Shown in pieces: positions 1-6,770 of a stretch of 6,770 nt of DNA (within the stretch, counting starts at the first letter, position 1; the number at the start of each line of letters is the position of its first letter). The stretch lies in the IMG/VR virus record IMGVR_UViG_2563366946_000004; one strand, given 5' to 3'. Below the pieces are notes generated by a model that did not search any database, was not told the origin of the DNA, and saw nothing but the letters and a program-made list of their open reading frames with translations. A program made the translations under genes and the position numbers. This DNA comes from a virus (Duplodnaviria > Heunggongvirae > Uroviricota > Caudoviricetes).

Positions 1-2875
1 ACCATCACGTCGGCAAACATCGACCGTCTGCGCTTTACCTTCGGTGTGCAGGCACTGGTGGAAACCACCTCAAAGGGGGACAGGAATCCATCGGAAGTCC
101 GCCTGCTGGTTCAGATACAACGTAACGGTGGCTGGGTGACGGAAAAAGACATCACCATTAAGGGTAAAACCACCTCGCAGTATCTGGCCTCAGTGGTGGT
201 GGATAACCTGCCGCCGCGCCCGTTTAATATCCGGATGCGCAGGATGACGCCGGACAGCACCACAGACCAGCTGCAGAACAAAACGCTCTGGTCGTCATAC
301 ACCGAAATCATCGATGTGAAACAGTGCTACCCGAACACGGCACTGGTCGGCGTGCAGGTGGACTCGGAGCAGTTCGGCAGCCAGCAGGTGAGCCGTAATT
401 ATCATCTGCGCGGGCGTATTCTGCAGGTGCCGTCGAACTATAACCCGCAGACGCGGCAATACAGCGGTATCTGGGACGGAACGTTTAAGCCAGCATACAG
501 CAACAACATGGCCTGGTGTCTGTGGGATATGCTGACCCATCCGCGCTACGGCATGGGGAAGCGTCTCGGTGCGGCGGATGTGGACAAATGGGCGCTGTAT
601 GTCATCGGCCAGAATTGCGACCAGTCGGTGCCGGATGGCTTTGGTGGCACGGAGCCGCGCATCACCTGTAATGCCTACCTGACCACACAGCGCAAGGCGT
701 GGGATGTTCTCAGTGATTTCTGCTCGGCGATGCGCTGTATGCCGGTATGGAACGGGCAGACGCTGACGTTCGTGCAGGACCGACCGTCGGATAAGGTGTG
801 GACCTATAACCGCAGTAATGTGGTGATGCCGGATGATGGTGCGCCGTTCCGCTACAGCTTCAGCGCCCTGAAAGACCGCCATAATGCTGTTGAGGTGAAC
901 TGGATTGACCCGGATAACGGCTGGGAGACGGCGACAGAGCTTGTGGAGGACACGCAGGCCATTGCCCGTTACGGTCGTAACGTCACGAAGATGGATGCCT
1001 TTGGCTGTACCAGCCGGGGGCAGGCACACCGCGCCGGGCTGTGGCTGATTAAAACGGAGCTGCTGGAAACGCAGACCGTGGACTTCAGCGTGGGTGCAGA
1101 AGGGCTTCGCCATGTACCGGGCGATGTCATTGAAATCTGTGATGATGACTATGCGGGGATCAGCATCGGCGGGCGCGTGCTGGCGGTGAACAACCAGACG
1201 CGGACACTGACGCTCGACCGTGAAATCACGCTGCCATCCTCCGGCACCACGCTGATAAGCCTGGCTGACGGACAGGGGAATCCGGTCAGCGTGGAGGTCC
1301 AGTCCGTCACCGACGGCGTGAAGGTAAAAGTGAGCCGTGTTCCTGACGGCGTTGCAGAATACAGCGTGTGGGGGCTGAAGCTGCCGACGCTGCGCCAGCG
1401 CCTGTTCCGCTGTGTGAGTATCCGTGAGAACGATGACGGCACGTATGCCATCACTGCCGTGCAGCATGTACCGGAAAAAGAGGCCATCGTGGATAACGGG
1501 GCGCACTTTGACGGCGACCAGAGCGGCACGGTGAATGGTGTCACGCCGCCAGCGGTGCAGCACCTGACTGCCGAAGTCACCGCAGACAGCGGGGAATATC
1601 AGGTGCTGGCGCGCTGGGACACGCCGAAGGTGGTGAAGGGGGTGAGCTTTATGCTTCGCCTGACCGTGGCAGCGGATGACGGCAGTGAGCGGCTGGTCAG
1701 CACGGCCCGGACGACGGAAACCACATACCGCTTCAGGCAACTGGCGCTGGGGAACTACAGGCTGACAGTCCGGGCGGTAAATGCGTGGGGGCAGCAGGGC
1801 GATCCGGCATCGGTATCGTTCCGGATTGCCGCACCGGCAGCGCCGTCGCAGATTGAGCTGACACCGGGGTATTTTCAGATAACCGCCACGCCGCATCTTG
1901 CGGTTTATGATCCGACGGTACAGTTTGAGTTCTGGTTCTCGGAAAAGCGGATTGCGGATATCAGGCAGGTTGAAACCACAGCACGCTATCTTGGCACGGC
2001 GCTGTACTGGATAGCCGCCAGTATCAATATCAAACCGGGCCATGATTATTATTTTTACATCCGCAGTGTGAACACCGTTGGCAAATCGGCATTTGTGGAG
2101 GCTGTTGGCCAGCCGAGTGATGATGCATCCGGCTATCTGAATTTTTTCAAAGGAGAGATAGGGAAAACCCATCTGGCTCAGGAGTTGTGGACGCAGATTG
2201 ATAACGGTCAGCTTGCGCCTGACCTGGCTGAAATCAGGACGTCCATTACGGGTGTCAGCAATGAAATCACGCAGACCGTCAATAAGAAACTGGAAGACCA
2301 GAGTGCAGCGATCCAGCAGATACAGAAGGTTCAGGTTGATACAAATAATAACCTGAACAGCATGTGGGCTGTGAAGCTGCAGCAGATGCAGGACGGACGC
2401 CTTTATATCGCGGGTATTGGTGCCGGTGTTGAGAATACTCCTGACGGTATGCAGAGTCAGGTGCTGCTGGCGGCGGACAGGATTGCGATGATTAATCCTG
2501 CGAATGGCAACACAAAGCCGATGTTTGTTGGGCAGGGCGATCAGATATTCATGAACGAAGTGTTCCTGAAATATCTGACGGCTCCCACCATTACCAGCGG
2601 TGGCAATCCCCCAACGTTTTCACTGACACCTGATGGTCGACTTTCTGCGAAAAATGCGGATATCAGCGGTAACGTGAACGCGAACTCCGGGACGCTCAAC
2701 AACGTCACGATTAATCAGAACTGTCGGATTCTGGGAAAACTGTCAGCTAACCAGATTGAAGGTGATATTGTCAAAACGGTGGGAAAAGCCTTTCCGAGAA
2801 ATGGCAGTTATGCCAGCGGTACAATAACGGTCACTGTGTACGATGACCAGGCTTTTGACCGTCAGATAGTAGTCC
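1..2875 (+). pseudogene. J: Lambda-like tail tip / host specificity protein J (central tail fibre), N-terminal and central part; 5' end lies upstream of the window; interrupted by an IS insertion at 2876
   Basis: Frame 1 is open from base 1 with no upstream stop in the window. The translation carries long stretches I recognise from lambda J (e.g. [78 protein letters not shown], fibronectin-III-like segment, [20 protein letters not shown]). J-derived coding ends at 2875 where the IS terminus TGAACC begins. The supplied ORF 46..3036 continues into the IS only as read-through. Confidence 0.9.
2873..2875. repeat. Target-site duplication (TCC), left copy, flanking the IS insertion in J
   Basis: TCC lies immediately outside the IS terminus at 2873-2875 and again at 4186-4188. 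A 3-bp duplication is typical of IS3-family elements. Confidence 0.75.
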
Positions 2876-2900
2876 TGAACCGCCCCGGGTTTCCTGGAGA
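2876..2900. repeat. IS terminal inverted repeat, right end (IRR)
   Basis: TGAACCGCCCCGGGTTTCCTGGAGA matches the reverse complement of 4161..4185 at 23 of 25 positions (AA/TT mismatch at positions 15-16). Confidence 0.8.
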
Positions 2901-2917
2901 GTGTTTTATCTGTGAAC

Positions 2918-3808
2918 TCAGGCTGCCAGATCATCGTTTCCGATGGAAGCATAATAAGCTTTTTCTGCTTCTGCCGGAGGAGTATGGCCCAGCCTTTCCA
3001 GCAATCGTCGATTGTTATACCAGTCCACCCACGTGAGTGTGGCCAGTTCCACTTCTGCACGGTTTTTCCAGCTCTTACGGTGTATTACCTCCGCTTTGTA
3101 AAGGCCATTGATGCTCTCCGCCATCGCGTTGTCATACGAGTCGCCTGTACTTCCTGTTGATGCCAGTAATCCGGCTTCCTTAAGCCGCTGTGTGTAGGCC
3201 AGCGATACATACTGAGAACCTTTATCACTGTGATGGACCGTGCCGGACGGTCGACGGGCCCATAACGCCTGCTCCAGTGCATCCAGCACGAATGTCGTTT
3301 CCATGGACGATGAGACCCGCCACCCCACGATGTATCCGGCAAACACATCAATGATGAACGCCACATAGACGAAGCCCCGCCATGTGCTGACGTAAGTAAA
3401 ATCAGCCACCCACAGCTGGTCAGGTCGTTCTGCCACGAACTGACGGTTTACGCGGTCGCCTGCGGCAACGGCTTTCCGGCTGATGGTCGTACGGACCTTT
3501 TTACCCCGGAGAACACCGGCAAGTCCCATAACCGCCATGAGACGTGCCACAGTGCATCTGGCCACTCTGATACCTTCCCGTAACAACTGACGCCAGACTT
3601 TACGCACACCGTATACCTTGTGATTTTCATCGTATACGCGCTGTATCTCTTTCTTCAGCCAGTCATCGCGCTGCGCACGGGCACTGCGTTTATCCGGATG
3701 ATGTCGCTGTTGCTGACAGTGGTAATACGTTGACGGGGCAATATGCAGTTCGCTGCATAGCGGTCCGACCCCGTACTGCTCACGCAGCTTATCCAGCAGT
3801 GGCATCAT
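2918..3808 (-). CDS. IS3-family transposase OrfB (DDE catalytic domain), normally expressed as an OrfAB fusion by -1 frameshifting
   Basis: Supplied 296-aa minus-strand ORF with DDE-type motifs ([31 protein letters not shown]). It overlaps the orfA stop in the -1 frame. The stop (TGA, complement of 2918-2920) sits just inside the IRR. Confidence 0.9.
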
Positions 3809-3815
3809 TTTTTCC
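3805..3815 (-). other. Programmed -1 ribosomal frameshift site (A6 slippery run) at the orfA/orfB overlap
   Basis: Minus-strand sequence ...CTGGAAAAAATGATGCCA...: orfA ends ...LWKK-TGA, and orfB continues MMPLLDK in the -1 frame. An A AAA AAN heptamer at the orfA/orfB overlap is the canonical IS3-family arrangement (established knowledge). Confidence 0.7.
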
Positions 3816-4131
3816 AGAGGCGGTCGAACTCCGCCTTCGCAAAATAAGCGGAAGCCTGGCGAAGGATATCGTTACTGCGGCGCAGTTCACGATTTTCACG
3901 TTCCAGCTCTTTCAGACGCTGACGTTCAGCGGTGGTGAGCCCTCCATCACCGCCCCCGGTATCCCGCTCATGCTGGCGAACCCAGACACGCAGAGTCTCC
4001 GGCGTACAGCCAATCTTTGGAGCAATGGAACAAATTGTCGCCCATTGTGAGTCATATTCGCTCTGACTTTCCAGAACCATACGAATCGCCCTCTGACGGA
4101 CTTCGGGGGAAAAACGAGTATTTTTAGTCAT
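3805..4131 (-). CDS. IS3-family transposase OrfA (HTH DNA-binding and leucine-zipper region)
   Basis: Supplied 108-aa minus-strand [59 protein letters not shown]...[39 protein letters not shown] is 54 bp inside the IS left end. Confidence 0.9.
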
Positions 4132-4160
4132 CCTGTTTACCTCTTTCTCAGGAAGTTTAG

Positions 4161-4185
4161 TCTCCAGGATTCCCGGGGCGGTTCA
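4161..4185. repeat. IS terminal inverted repeat, left end (IRL) of the minus-orientation copy
   Basis: Reverse complement of 4161..4185 is TGAACCGCCCCGGGAATCCTGGAGA, identical to the start of the second IS copy at 6451. Confidence 0.85.
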
Positions 4186-4188
4186 TCC
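4186..4188. repeat. Target-site duplication (TCC), right copy
   Basis: TCC immediately follows the IS end (GGTTCA at 4180-4185) and matches 2873-2875. Confidence 0.75.
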
Positions 4189-4490
4189 CCCCCGTTCTGT
4201 TTCGTGGGGGTAAGCATGAAAACTTCAACAGCAACAACCAACAGTCATACTGGTATTCAACCTGTAAGCTGCAGGTACTGAAGAACGGACAGGAAATCTT
4301 TCAGCAACCCGCGACGGATGTCAGCAGGGTATTTTCATCAGTCATTGATATGCCTGCCGGACACGGCCATGTCACCCTGACTTTCAATGTTTCTTCATAT
4401 GGTGCTAATAACTGGACGCCAACGACCAGTATCAGCGACCTTCTTGTTGTTGTGATGAAGAAATCTACAGCCGGTATCAGTATCAGTTGA
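4186..4490 (+). pseudogene. J: C-terminal ~100 codons of tail tip protein J, separated from the rest of the gene by the IS
   Basis: The frame starting at 4188 is open to TGA at 4488-4490 and encodes [100 protein letters not shown]. This resembles my recollection of the lambda J C-terminus (...DMPAG.G......[14 protein letters not shown]). With the IS and one TCC removed this frame is contiguous with the upstream J frame (...[15 protein letters not shown]...). Confidence 0.8.
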
Positions 4491-4507: not shown

Positions 4508-4536
4508 CGGGCGCCAGAAATGGCGCCTTTTTTATT
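4508..4536 (+). terminator. Rho-independent terminator between J and stf
   Basis: Perfect 6-bp stem GGCGCC (4510-4515) / GGCGCC (4522-4527) with loop AGAAAT, followed directly by TTTTTT (4528-4533), 18 bp downstream of the J stop codon. Confidence 0.65.
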
Positions 4537-4548
4537 TGTGGAGTGAAT

Positions 4549-6453
4549 ATGGCAGTACAGATTTCAGGCGTGCTGAAAGACGGTGCAGGAAAACCGATAC
4601 AGAACTGCACCATTCAGCTCAAAGCAAAACGTAACAGCACCACGGTTGTGGTGAACACGGTGGCCTCAGAAAATCCGGATGAAGCCGGACGTTACAGCAT
4701 GGATGTCGAGTATGGCCAGTACAGCGTTATCCTGCTGGTTGAAGGTTTTCCGCCTTCACATGCCGGGGCCATCACCGTGTATGAGGATTCTAAGCCGGGG
4801 ACATTGAATGATTTTCTGGGCGCTGCAACAGAAGATGATGTTCGTCCGGAGGCACTGTATCGTTTTGAAAAGATGGTGGAAGAGGTGGCACGCAACGCTG
4901 AAGCCGCCTCTCAGAGCGCAGCGGCAGCAAAGAAATCAGAAACAGCAGCGGCATCGTCCAGGAATGCGGCGAAAACATCAGAGACGAATGCAGGTAACAG
5001 CGCGAAAGCGGCAGCTTCTTCAAAAACAGCCGCACAAAACGCAGCAACAGCGGCAGAACGTTCAGAGACAAATGCCCGTGCGTCAGAAGAAGCCTCCGCA
5101 GACAGTGAAGAGGCTTCCCGCCGTAATGCAGAGTCAGCCGCTGAAAATGCCGGAGTCGCCACCACAAAAGCGCGGGAGGCCGCAGCAGACGCAACAAAGG
5201 CCGGGCAGAAAAAGGATGAGGCTCTGTCGGCAGCGACACGGGCTGAAAAGGCGGCAGACCGCGCAGAAGTCGCAGCGGAAGTGACTGCAGAGCCCTATGC
5301 GAATATAGTGCCGCCGCTGCCTGATGTGTGGATACCGTTTAACGATTCACTGGATATGATTGCGGGTTTTTCTCCGGGCTATAAAAAAATAGCTATTGGT
5401 GACGATGTGGTTCAGGTCGCCAGTGATAAACAGGTTAATTTCAGTCGCGCATCAACGGCAACATATATCAACAAATCTGGCGAACTGAAAACGGCGGAAA
5501 TTAATGAGCCGCGATTTGAGTGTGATGGCCTGCTTATTGAGGGACAAAGAACGAACTACATGCTCAATTCGGAAAGTCCAGCCAGCTGGGGGAAGTCATC
5601 AAACATGGATGTGCCCGAAACCGGGACAGATAGTTTTGGTTTTACTTATGGAAAGTTTGTCTGCAACGATTCTCTGGTTGGGCAAACTTCGGCTATTAAT
5701 ATGGCATCAATTGCTGCAACAAAGTCAGTTGATGTCTCAGGCGATAACAAGTACGTGACAACCTCATGCCGTTTTAAAACAGAACGACAGGTAAGGTTAC
5801 GTATACGGTTTGATAAGTATGATGGTAGTGCAACAACTTTTCTTGGCGATGCGTACATTGATACGCAAACGCTTGAAATTAATATGACAGGTGGGGCTGC
5901 CGGCAGAATTACGGCACGAGTCAGGAAGGATAAGACCACAGGCTGGATTTTTGCAGAGGCAACGATTCAGGCAATTGATGGTGAGTTAAAAATAGGCTCT
6001 CAGATACAGTATTCTCCTGAGCGGGGTGGGGCAACAGTATCTGGTGACTATATTTATCTTGCCACCCCACAAGTAGAGAATGGGCCGTGTGTATCATCAT
6101 TTATTATTTCAGGAGGCAGCGCAACGACAAGAGCCAGTGATTTGGTTAGTATCCCTACCAGAAATAATCTTTATAAGTTACCATTTACTTTTTTACTTGA
6201 GATTCATAAAAACTGGGATATTGCACCAAACGCCGCACCCCGCGTGTGGGATATAGCAGCAGCCAATACCGGGCAATCAGCAATTGCAGCAATCAACAGA
6301 GGTAGTGGTAAGTTATATATGAGTCTGTCAAACCCTTCAGGCTTGTATGTTAATAGCGCAGCGACAGATGTATTTGCAGAGAAAACCACATTTGGATGTA
6401 TTGCAAAAGCTGATGGTCACTTTCATGTGGTGACAAATGGTAAAGCGGTTTGA
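4549..6453 (+). CDS. stf: Side tail fibre protein (Stf-like); lambda-Stf-like N-terminal anchor, Ala/Ser/Glu-rich repeats, distinct C-terminal domain; 3' end abuts the second IS and is probably truncated
   Basis: ATG at 4549 is preceded by GGAG (4540-4543) at 5-nt spacing. The supplied ORF starts at an upstream GTG (4543), but MAVQISGVLKDGAGKPIQNCTIQLKAKRNSTTVVVNTVASENPDEAGRYSMDVEYGQYSVILLVEGFPPSHAG matches the N-terminus of lambda Stf / Rac StfR as I recall them (MAVKISGVLKDGTGKPVQNCTIQLKA...). The stop TGA (6451-6453) is the first three bases of the IS terminus. Confidence 0.85.
   Translation: MAVQISGVLKDGAGKPIQNCTIQLKAKRNSTTVVVNTVASENPDEAGRYSMDVEYGQYSVILLVEGFPPSHAGAITVYEDSKPGTLNDFLGAATEDDVRPEALYRFEKMVEEVARNAEAASQSAAAAKKSETAAASSRNAAKTSETNAGNSAKAAASSKTAAQNAATAAERSETNARASEEASADSEEASRRNAESAAENAGVATTKAREAAADATKAGQKKDEALSAATRAEKAADRAEVAAEVTAEPYANIVPPLPDVWIPFNDSLDMIAGFSPGYKKIAIGDDVVQVASDKQVNFSRASTATYINKSGELKTAEINEPRFECDGLLIEGQRTNYMLNSESPASWGKSSNMDVPETGTDSFGFTYGKFVCNDSLVGQTSAINMASIAATKSVDVSGDNKYVTTSCRFKTERQVRLRIRFDKYDGSATTFLGDAYIDTQTLEINMTGGAAGRITARVRKDKTTGWIFAEATIQAIDGELKIGSQIQYSPERGGATVSGDYIYLATPQVENGPCVSSFIISGGSATTRASDLVSIPTRNNLYKLPFTFLLEIHKNWDIAPNAAPRVWDIAAANTGQSAIAAINRGSGKLYMSLSNPSGLYVNSAATDVFAEKTTFGCIAKADGHFHVVTNGKAV
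4897..5280 (+). repeat. Low-complexity Ala/Ser/Glu/Thr-rich tail-fibre repeat region inside stf
   Basis: The translation shows degenerate recurring units (SETNA..S..AA.., AAKTSETNAGNSAKAAASSKTAAQNAATAAERSETNARASEEASADSEEAS...). The DNA here is GC-rich and open in several frames on both strands, which produces the spurious overlapping ORFs 4808..5284(+), 4790..5239(-) and 4911..5165(-). Confidence 0.7.
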
Positions 6454-6475
6454 ACCGCCCCGGGAATCCTGGAGA
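6451..6475. repeat. IRL of the second IS copy
   Basis: TGAACCGCCCCGGGAATCCTGGAGA, identical to the IRL of the first copy. Confidence 0.85.
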
Positions 6476-6504
6476 CTAAACTTCCTGAGAAAGAGGTAAA
6501 CAGG

Positions 6505-6770
6505 ATGACTAAAAATACTCGTTTTTCCCCCGAAGTCCGTCAGAGGGCGATTCGTATGGTTCTGGAAAGTCAGAGCGAATATGACTCACAATGGGCGACA
6601 ATTTGTTCCATTGCTCCAAAGATTGGCTGTACGCCGGAGACTCTGCGTGTCTGGGTTCGCCAGCATGAGCGGGATACCGGGGGCGGTGATGGAGGGCTCA
6701 CCACCGCTGAACGTCAGCGTCTGAAAGAGCTGGAACGTGAAAATCGTGAACTGCGCCGCAGTAACGATAT
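6505..6770 (+). CDS. IS3-family transposase OrfA of the second IS copy, 3'-partial (window ends)
   Basis: ATG at 6505, 54 bp inside the IS end. Translation [30 protein letters not shown]... is identical to orfA of the first copy over the visible part. Confidence 0.9.
   Translation, partial: MTKNTRFSPEVRQRAIRMVLESQSEYDSQWATICSIAPKIGCTPETLRVWVRQHERDTGGGDGGLTTAERQRLKELERENRELRRSND

Follow-up and report, generated by a model that had tools for sequence, protein, structure and literature searches.

Truncation of a side tail fibre gene by an IS629-group element in a phage 21-like Escherichia coli prophage

The side tail fibre gene (stf) of the prophage described here has, in all likelihood, been hit by a simple insertion of an IS629-group element, with truncation of Stf and a 3-bp duplication of the target GTT; we put the probability of this reading at about 0.96. 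The window, by which we mean the whole stretch of 6,770 nucleotides that was analyzed, occurs letter for letter in scaffold KB732220.1 (GCA_000350645.1, locus L003, 5453-12222), and includes, in this order, the J gene, an insertion sequence (IS) on the minus strand, the end of J, stf, and the start of a second IS copy (Table 1). We propose that a 1310-bp IS629-group element transposed into stf of a phage 21-like, sitABCD-carrying E. coli chromosomal prophage, presumably by the copy-out/paste-in route usual for the IS3 family. Insertion took place between codons 634 and 635 of 686, duplicating the GTT target; with the IS landing in frame, translation of stf halts at its first three bases, and the product lacks 52 residues. 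In J, the break made by an identical copy in the opposite orientation falls at codon 1061 of 1160; this leaves the prophage with neither host-recognition protein whole, as in a decaying prophage that keeps its sit operon as cargo. The junctions, the two target duplications, the 3' part of stf past the IS and the match of the rebuilt protein to intact Stf are directly observed; which insertion came first, when each occurred, and the loss of fibre function are inferred.

Table 1. Features of the window (positions are those of the 6,770-nt stretch unless a locus is named)
Feature	Coordinates	Strand	Evidence or remark
J, 5' part (central tail fibre / tail tip), to codon 1061 of 1160	1..2875	+	99.6% identical to phage 21 J; Pfam J domains
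TCC, left target duplication of IS copy 1	2873..2875	.	Right copy at 4186-4188
IS copy 1, complete IS629-group element (IS3 family), 1310 bp, termini TGAACCGCCCCGGG...CCCGGGGCGGTTCA	2876..4185	-	Boundaries mapped
IS orfB, 296 aa, rve (DDE) catalytic domain	2918..3808	-	
ALIL pseudoknot (RF01497)	3734..3850	-	120.2 bits (gathering score 50), E 1e-31
IS orfA, 108 aa, HTH_Tnp_1 domain	3805..4131	-	
J, 3' remnant, last ~100 codons and stop	4186..4490	+	Colinear with phage 21 J, offset +1799
Truncated stf, 634 native codons and IS-derived TGA	4549..6453	+	Sequence, domain searches, phage 21 comparison
GTT, left target duplication of IS copy 2	6448..6450	.	Right copy outside the window, L003 13294-13296
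IS copy 2, first 320 bp (left terminal repeat; orfA from ATG 6505)	6451..6770	+	Identity to IS copy 1

The stf junction and the missing 3' end

The stf reading frame, whose start is the annotated ATG at 4549 (the mechanical list of open reading frames, ORFs, gives an upstream in-frame GTG at 4543, i.e., 4543/4549..6453), ends with ...ADGHFHVVTNGKAV, where GTT is the last sense codon and the next codon is the TGA at 6451-6453. At 6451 begins the left terminal repeat (TGAACCGCCCCGGGAATCCTGGAGACTAAAC...) of an IS3-family element of 1310 bp, and the 320 bases from there to the end of the window show 0 mismatches to IS copy 1, relative to which this second copy is inverted. As had been stated in the preliminary description, the stop codon of stf is supplied by the IS, TGA 6451-6453 being its bases 1-3. 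That TGA falls in frame here is unremarkable, because both ends of this IS start with the triplet; insertion brings an immediate stop in one of the three reading frames, and in the other two frames a stop follows after 10 and 17 codons when the left IS end is entered, or after 54 and 14 when it is the right one.

The intact form of the gene is abundantly represented. Positions 5300-6450 share 99.9% DNA identity with stf of Escherichia phage 21 (OL657228), and likewise with the prophage of UTI89 and those of over 560 further E. coli records. The stf gene of phage 21 has 2061 nt and encodes 686 aa (UMO75437.1); position 6450 of the window corresponds to 4651 of locus L001, and the phage 21 gene runs for 159 nt beyond the junction point (NEVYCEYNGVTADKNIRFGGQTNTGERHLFGHIRNFRIWHKELNDRQLKEVV, then stop). 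In UTI89, too, stf is open over all 686 codons and encodes the same protein as in phage 21, although PGAP annotates it in two pieces. The prophage studied here resembles phage 21 and extraintestinal pathogenic E. coli (ExPEC) prophage copies such as that of UTI89 in the first 634 residues of Stf (identical in amino acids), in having J upstream, and in carrying a 92-aa ORF, a 97-aa ORF and sitDCBA downstream; it differs from them in that stf is interrupted after codon 634, without its last 52 residues, and in that J is interrupted too.

The missing 3' end lies beyond the far end of the IS. The window ends where an N-gap of the scaffold begins, inside IS copy 2; past this gap, the same scaffold (L003) resumes with the terminal 121 bp of the IS, which match copy 1 throughout, and reaches the far junction, ...GGGGCGGTTCA/GTT AATGAAGTTTATTG... 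(GTT AAT GAA GTT TAT TGT...), that is, a second GTT and the in-frame remainder of stf. The 92-aa ORF, the 97-aa ORF and sitDCBA follow in phage 21 order. When the IS and one GTT are taken out, the reconstruction gives a 686-aa protein with 0 amino acid and 1 nucleotide differences from phage 21 Stf. Both stf/IS junctions are found in a second assembly (L004) as in L003. In this sense, the direct repeat and the in-frame continuation of Stf predicted past the far IS end were both located in L003, and the native frame did continue past 6450, as had been supposed: 52 more codons follow in phage 21 and UTI89, and they are also found beyond the IS.

It is very unlikely that the IS marks the boundary of a deletion or rearrangement, with the 3' end of stf and the downstream phage genes gone or elsewhere. 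Such an event is seen at this very locus in SFAD3, where stf at L001 4745 adjoins an IS629-like element that has a deletion next to it and unrelated prophage DNA on the far side, and the interior of IS copy 2 is an N-gap in L003 and L004, its continuity coming from scaffolding, the matching GTT and colinearity. However, in L003 and L004 alike the far IS end leads into a second GTT, into stf resumed exactly at the point of interruption, and then into the genes of phage 21 in their order as far as sitA, which argues against a boundary; no unrelated, non-phage DNA lies beyond the IS.

Homologous proteins point to the same full length. A protein search listed 120 relatives with 59-100% identity and three kinds of N-terminal module (PF08400, PF12571, and PF03406); the complete homologues listed align through position 686 and share their terminal motif, those stopping earlier among the matches listed are partial, frameshifted or diverging earlier, and none of the 120 relatives listed natively ends at NGKAV. 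Stf is here shorter than full-length homologues (634 vs 686 aa), as anticipated. That the IS landed at or replaced the native stop, leaving stf full length, had already been rated the less likely alternative, and is permitted only by the bare coincidence of the in-frame TGA; intact alleles of 686 aa, the 52 codons on the far side of the IS and the complete homologues listed, which reach position 686, refute it for practical purposes. There is also next to no chance that the junction is an assembly chimera at a repeated IS, with stf intact in the strain (uninterrupted site, GCGGTTAATGAAG), for, even if IS629 is multicopy and these short-read scaffolds have gaps at each IS, the left stf/IS and right IS/GTT-stf junctions both lie within contigs in two assemblies, and a matching 3-bp duplication would not arise from a chimera.

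One argument put forward for truncation does not survive comparison. The lack of a tail-fibre assembly chaperone gene (tfa) after stf had been read as support, and a tfa-like gene had been expected past the far IS end; nonetheless, no tfa follows stf in intact phage 21 or UTI89, where the 92-aa and 97-aa ORFs are found instead, and its absence is uninformative because intact phage 21 has none after this type of stf. No tfa-like gene was found beyond IS copy 2 in the source scaffold either, the two ORFs and sitDCBA occupying that place. The 92-aa ORF overlaps the stf stop (ATGA) and belongs to phrog_1361, a family of unassigned function, with no Pfam match; the 97-aa ORF encodes a membrane protein.

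The inserted element and the interruption of J

IS copy 1 has the size (~1.3 kb), the imperfect terminal inverted repeats and the 5'-TG...CA-3' ends of the IS3 family, with a 14-bp terminus common to both ends (TGAACCGCCCCGGG). Its two genes overlap, and the orfB protein matches NCBIfam transpos_IS3 with 314.6 bits. The ALIL pseudoknot, the frameshift-stimulating RNA of IS3-family elements, is located at the orfA/orfB overlap, and PGAP notes a "programmed frameshift" for near-identical IS copies; orfB is accordingly annotated here as predicted to be expressed as an OrfAB fusion through -1 frameshifting. Full-length matches at 99.6%, with the annotation IS3 family transposase, are present in E. 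coli genomes, and copies in E. coli whose first 320 bp are 97.9-99.4% identical carry the PGAP name "IS3-like element IS629 family transposase."

From these sequence comparisons the element is assigned to the IS629 group, an assignment at group level. Isoforms are recognized in ISfinder by at least 95% nucleotide identity to the reference sequence. The likeness to the IS629/IS3411/IS1203 group of E. coli O157:H7 and Shigella includes the length of 1310 bp, the TG...CA termini and the 14-bp terminal repeat, the pairing of an orfA with a helix-turn-helix (HTH) domain and an orfB with an rve/DDE domain, the ALIL pseudoknot, the 3-bp duplications and the position in prophage late genes. O157-type copies (IS1203 according to PGAP) are more distant, with ~95-96% identity to the IS of the window over the part compared. 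Target duplications are of 3 bp at both copies (TCC at copy 1, GTT at copy 2); for published IS629, duplications of 3-4 bp have been described, and 62% of the copies are situated in prophages (PMC3271280).

J has been interrupted by copy 1 in the same manner. Its frame reads 53 codons into the IS, which gives the ORF 46..3036, and at the corresponding site the intact J of loci L001, L002, L005, and L006 has TCC only once (GTAGTCCCCCCCGTT). The two IS copies are inverted with respect to each other and bracket 2265 bp. The suggestion that one type of IS struck both receptor-binding proteins is thus borne out, copy 1 lying in J and being identical to copy 2 over 320 bp.

For annotation purposes, the gene calls "tail fibre" (634 aa) and "J" (1011 aa) are IS-disrupted pseudogenes, and the prophage is to be scored as defective for host recognition. 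The event is ordinary IS-mediated prophage decay, and knowledge of IS3-family transposition or of tail fibres is left unchanged by the insertions in stf and J. The general pattern is one of phage 21-like late genes eroded by IS, with the adjacent sitABCD iron/manganese transporter cargo intact.

Predicted effect on the Stf protein

Stf begins with a phage_tail_N domain (PF08400, residues 1-131, E 8.6e-69), followed by an Ala-rich helical/coiled-coil stretch and by a GTA_spike_fiber domain at residues 329-529 (NF048003, 55.3 bits with a cut-off of 36); comparison with the solved RcGTA Rcc01080 chain (PDB 6tb9) gives an E-value of 6.3e-10. The N-terminal phage_tail_N domain and the situation of the gene directly after J (stf starts 59 nt past the J stop) are shared with the Stf/Tfa module of lambda. 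In contrast with that module, the phage 21-type Stf has a distal GTA head-spike-fibre domain and a putative concanavalin-like end, and stf is not followed by a tfa chaperone gene, even in intact phage 21.

The truncated protein keeps phage_tail_N, the Ala-rich coiled coil and GTA_spike_fiber, and its C-terminal domain is short of the final 52 residues. A weak match to Laminin_G_3 (PF13385) at residues 560-681 (23.9 bits, below the gathering cut-off of 27.6; E 5e-5) is seen in intact Stf and disappears from the truncated form; the same match is obtained in 16 of 32 homologues at E<0.01, and the distal C-terminal domain is probably concanavalin-like. Among the 52 lost positions, 17 are invariant across homologues (G..G.RHLFGH.RN.R.W.K.L.D.Q..E), and the lost segment holds the densest conserved motif of the Stf C-terminal domain. 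AlphaFold models were too poor to show a fold, both for the full intact homologue P0001 (32 sequences, mean pLDDT 45) and for the 416-aa C-terminal form P0063 (40 sequences, mean pLDDT 54). Since the most conserved motif of the C-terminal domain lies in the lost segment, loss of Stf function is likely: the distal domain of truncated Stf is most likely unable to fold, and the fibre most likely non-functional. As far as sequence alone can tell, a truncated fibre might still assemble.

Other insertions at and near the site

The stf/IS junction, in either orientation, was absent from all complete E. coli genomes searched, the site being uninterrupted in 576 of 576 complete-genome records carrying the 126 bp around it; exact junction scans of genome, metagenome and viral contig collections gave no match. 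An exact-sequence look-up of the 634-aa product matched four assemblies. Among drafts, an IS629 in reverse orientation interrupts precisely this bond in the unrelated assembly GCA_036320145.1 (L005), where J is intact; of 264 positions compared, 2 differ between this IS and that of the window. The L005 element inserted independently, because recombination between inverted IS copies cannot interconvert the junctions. A third assembly (L006) ends at the same bond as GCGGTT/TGAAGTGG, with 8 visible bases. These bases might be an IS3-family tip, for instance that of an IS911-like element, or might instead reflect a 2-bp deletion of AA together with two terminal errors.

It is conceivable, if rather doubtful, that the bond GCGGTT/AATGAAG is a sequence-specific hot spot for IS629-group elements, perhaps also for other IS3-family elements, whose target preference in the case of the IS629 group is called unknown in the literature. 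Support for this idea comes from L005 and L006, both at the same bond, and from three further IS insertions no more than 450 bp downstream in other strains; same-bond recurrence is only suggestive, because the look-up selects exactly this truncation. Resemblance of the target to the IS end was considered and set aside as evidence: GCGGTT, the 6 nt left of the site, is the reverse complement of IS bases 3-8 (AACCGC), and an equally good match occurs at 3-5.5% of the positions of an 8-kb reference. For IS911, a report of IS-end-like targets is cited in PMC3299598.

Other disruptions are frequent within the same 450 bp. An ISEc23 insertion with an 8-bp duplication (TATAATGG) is situated 19-26 bp downstream of the site; the 300-bp query is incompletely covered in about 128 complete-genome records, and among 13 of these that were sampled, 12 break at the ISEc23 point. 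FDAARGOS_1301 carries an IS629-like element with the duplication ATAA just before the 97-aa ORF, the IS629-like element of SFAD3 falls in this stretch as well, and a frameshift allele is represented by a cluster of 599 sequences. The 450-bp block is the most AT-rich of the region, with 39% G+C.

Insertions at and near the interrupted bond of stf

The bond at which the side tail fibre gene stf is interrupted in the window is also occupied in another draft assembly, and possibly in a second. GCA_036320145.1 carries an IS629-group element at the equivalent of window position 6451, in the orientation opposite to that of the window's copy, with its right terminal repeat adjoining GCGGTT of stf; the central tail fibre gene J is uninterrupted in this prophage. 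Since the two elements differ at 2 of 264 nt, this insertion is an event independent of that in the window. GCA_023887185.1 encodes the same 634-aa product as the window's stf, and there GCGGTT is followed by TGAAGTGG at the contig end. These last bases may belong to the terminus of an IS911-like element inserted at this very bond. Alternatively, the end could have arisen through loss of AA (a 2-bp deletion) from GCGGTTAATGAAGT, together with two end errors.

Two further IS629-like insertions lie close to this site. That of FDAARGOS_1301, flanked by a 4-bp duplication (ATAA), separates the ribosome-binding site of the 97-aa ORF downstream of stf from its ATG. The SFAD3 element is bordered on one side by stf (at phage 21 position 4745) and on the other by unrelated prophage DNA, which indicates an IS-associated deletion.

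In E. coli E138, stf is cut short by ISEc23 (IS66 family), 19-26 bp downstream of the window's IS629-group site. A 300-bp query was not fully covered in approximately 128 complete-genome records, and 12 of the 13 sampled among these were broken at the ISEc23 point.

Coordinates of the insertions and neighboring features
Feature	Location	Remarks
Identical IS copies	window 2876-4185 and 6451-6770	inverted orientations
IS629-group element	L005 7439-7702	GCA_036320145.1
Contig end	L006 3515-3529	GCA_023887185.1
IS629-like insertion	L009 3148-4457	FDAARGOS_1301; close to window's site
IS629-like insertion	L008 1693-3002	SFAD3; close to window's site
ISEc23 insertion	L007 3669-6211	E138
ISEc23 target duplication	L001 (phage 21) 4670-4677	8 bp, TATAATGG
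stf	L002 2750-4810	UTI89
sitDCBA and chromosomal genes beyond	L003 (source scaffold) 14128-17577 and 19742-21905	
GC-rich hairpin, then T-run	window 4510-4537	between J and stf

Frameshifted and misannotated forms of stf

A common frameshift allele of the window's stf type is represented by P0013 (a cluster of 599 sequences), which departs from intact Stf after ...NGVTA (phage 21 position about 4690), its terminal 28 residues being out of frame; the frameshift is most likely located in the A-run of GATAAAAATATC. PGAP calls UTI89 stf as two features, a "phage head spike fiber domain-containing protein" and a partial N-terminal pseudogene, although the gene is a single uninterrupted 686-aa ORF identical to phage 21 Stf; the two-piece call is thus an annotation artefact.

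The inverted IS pair and its surroundings

The window's inverted IS pair is a substrate for inversion via homologous recombination. The 2265 bp between the copies comprise the 3' end of J and stf codons 1-634, and retain colinearity with phage 21. As in phage 21, the iron/manganese transporter operon sitDCBA adjoins the tail fibre module in the source scaffold, where it is intact whereas J and stf are both broken; chromosomal genes with YmgL, DUF1398, MlrA-type (MerR family) and BLUF-EAL domains follow. The phage 21 record lists the hairpin and T-run between J and stf as a terminator.
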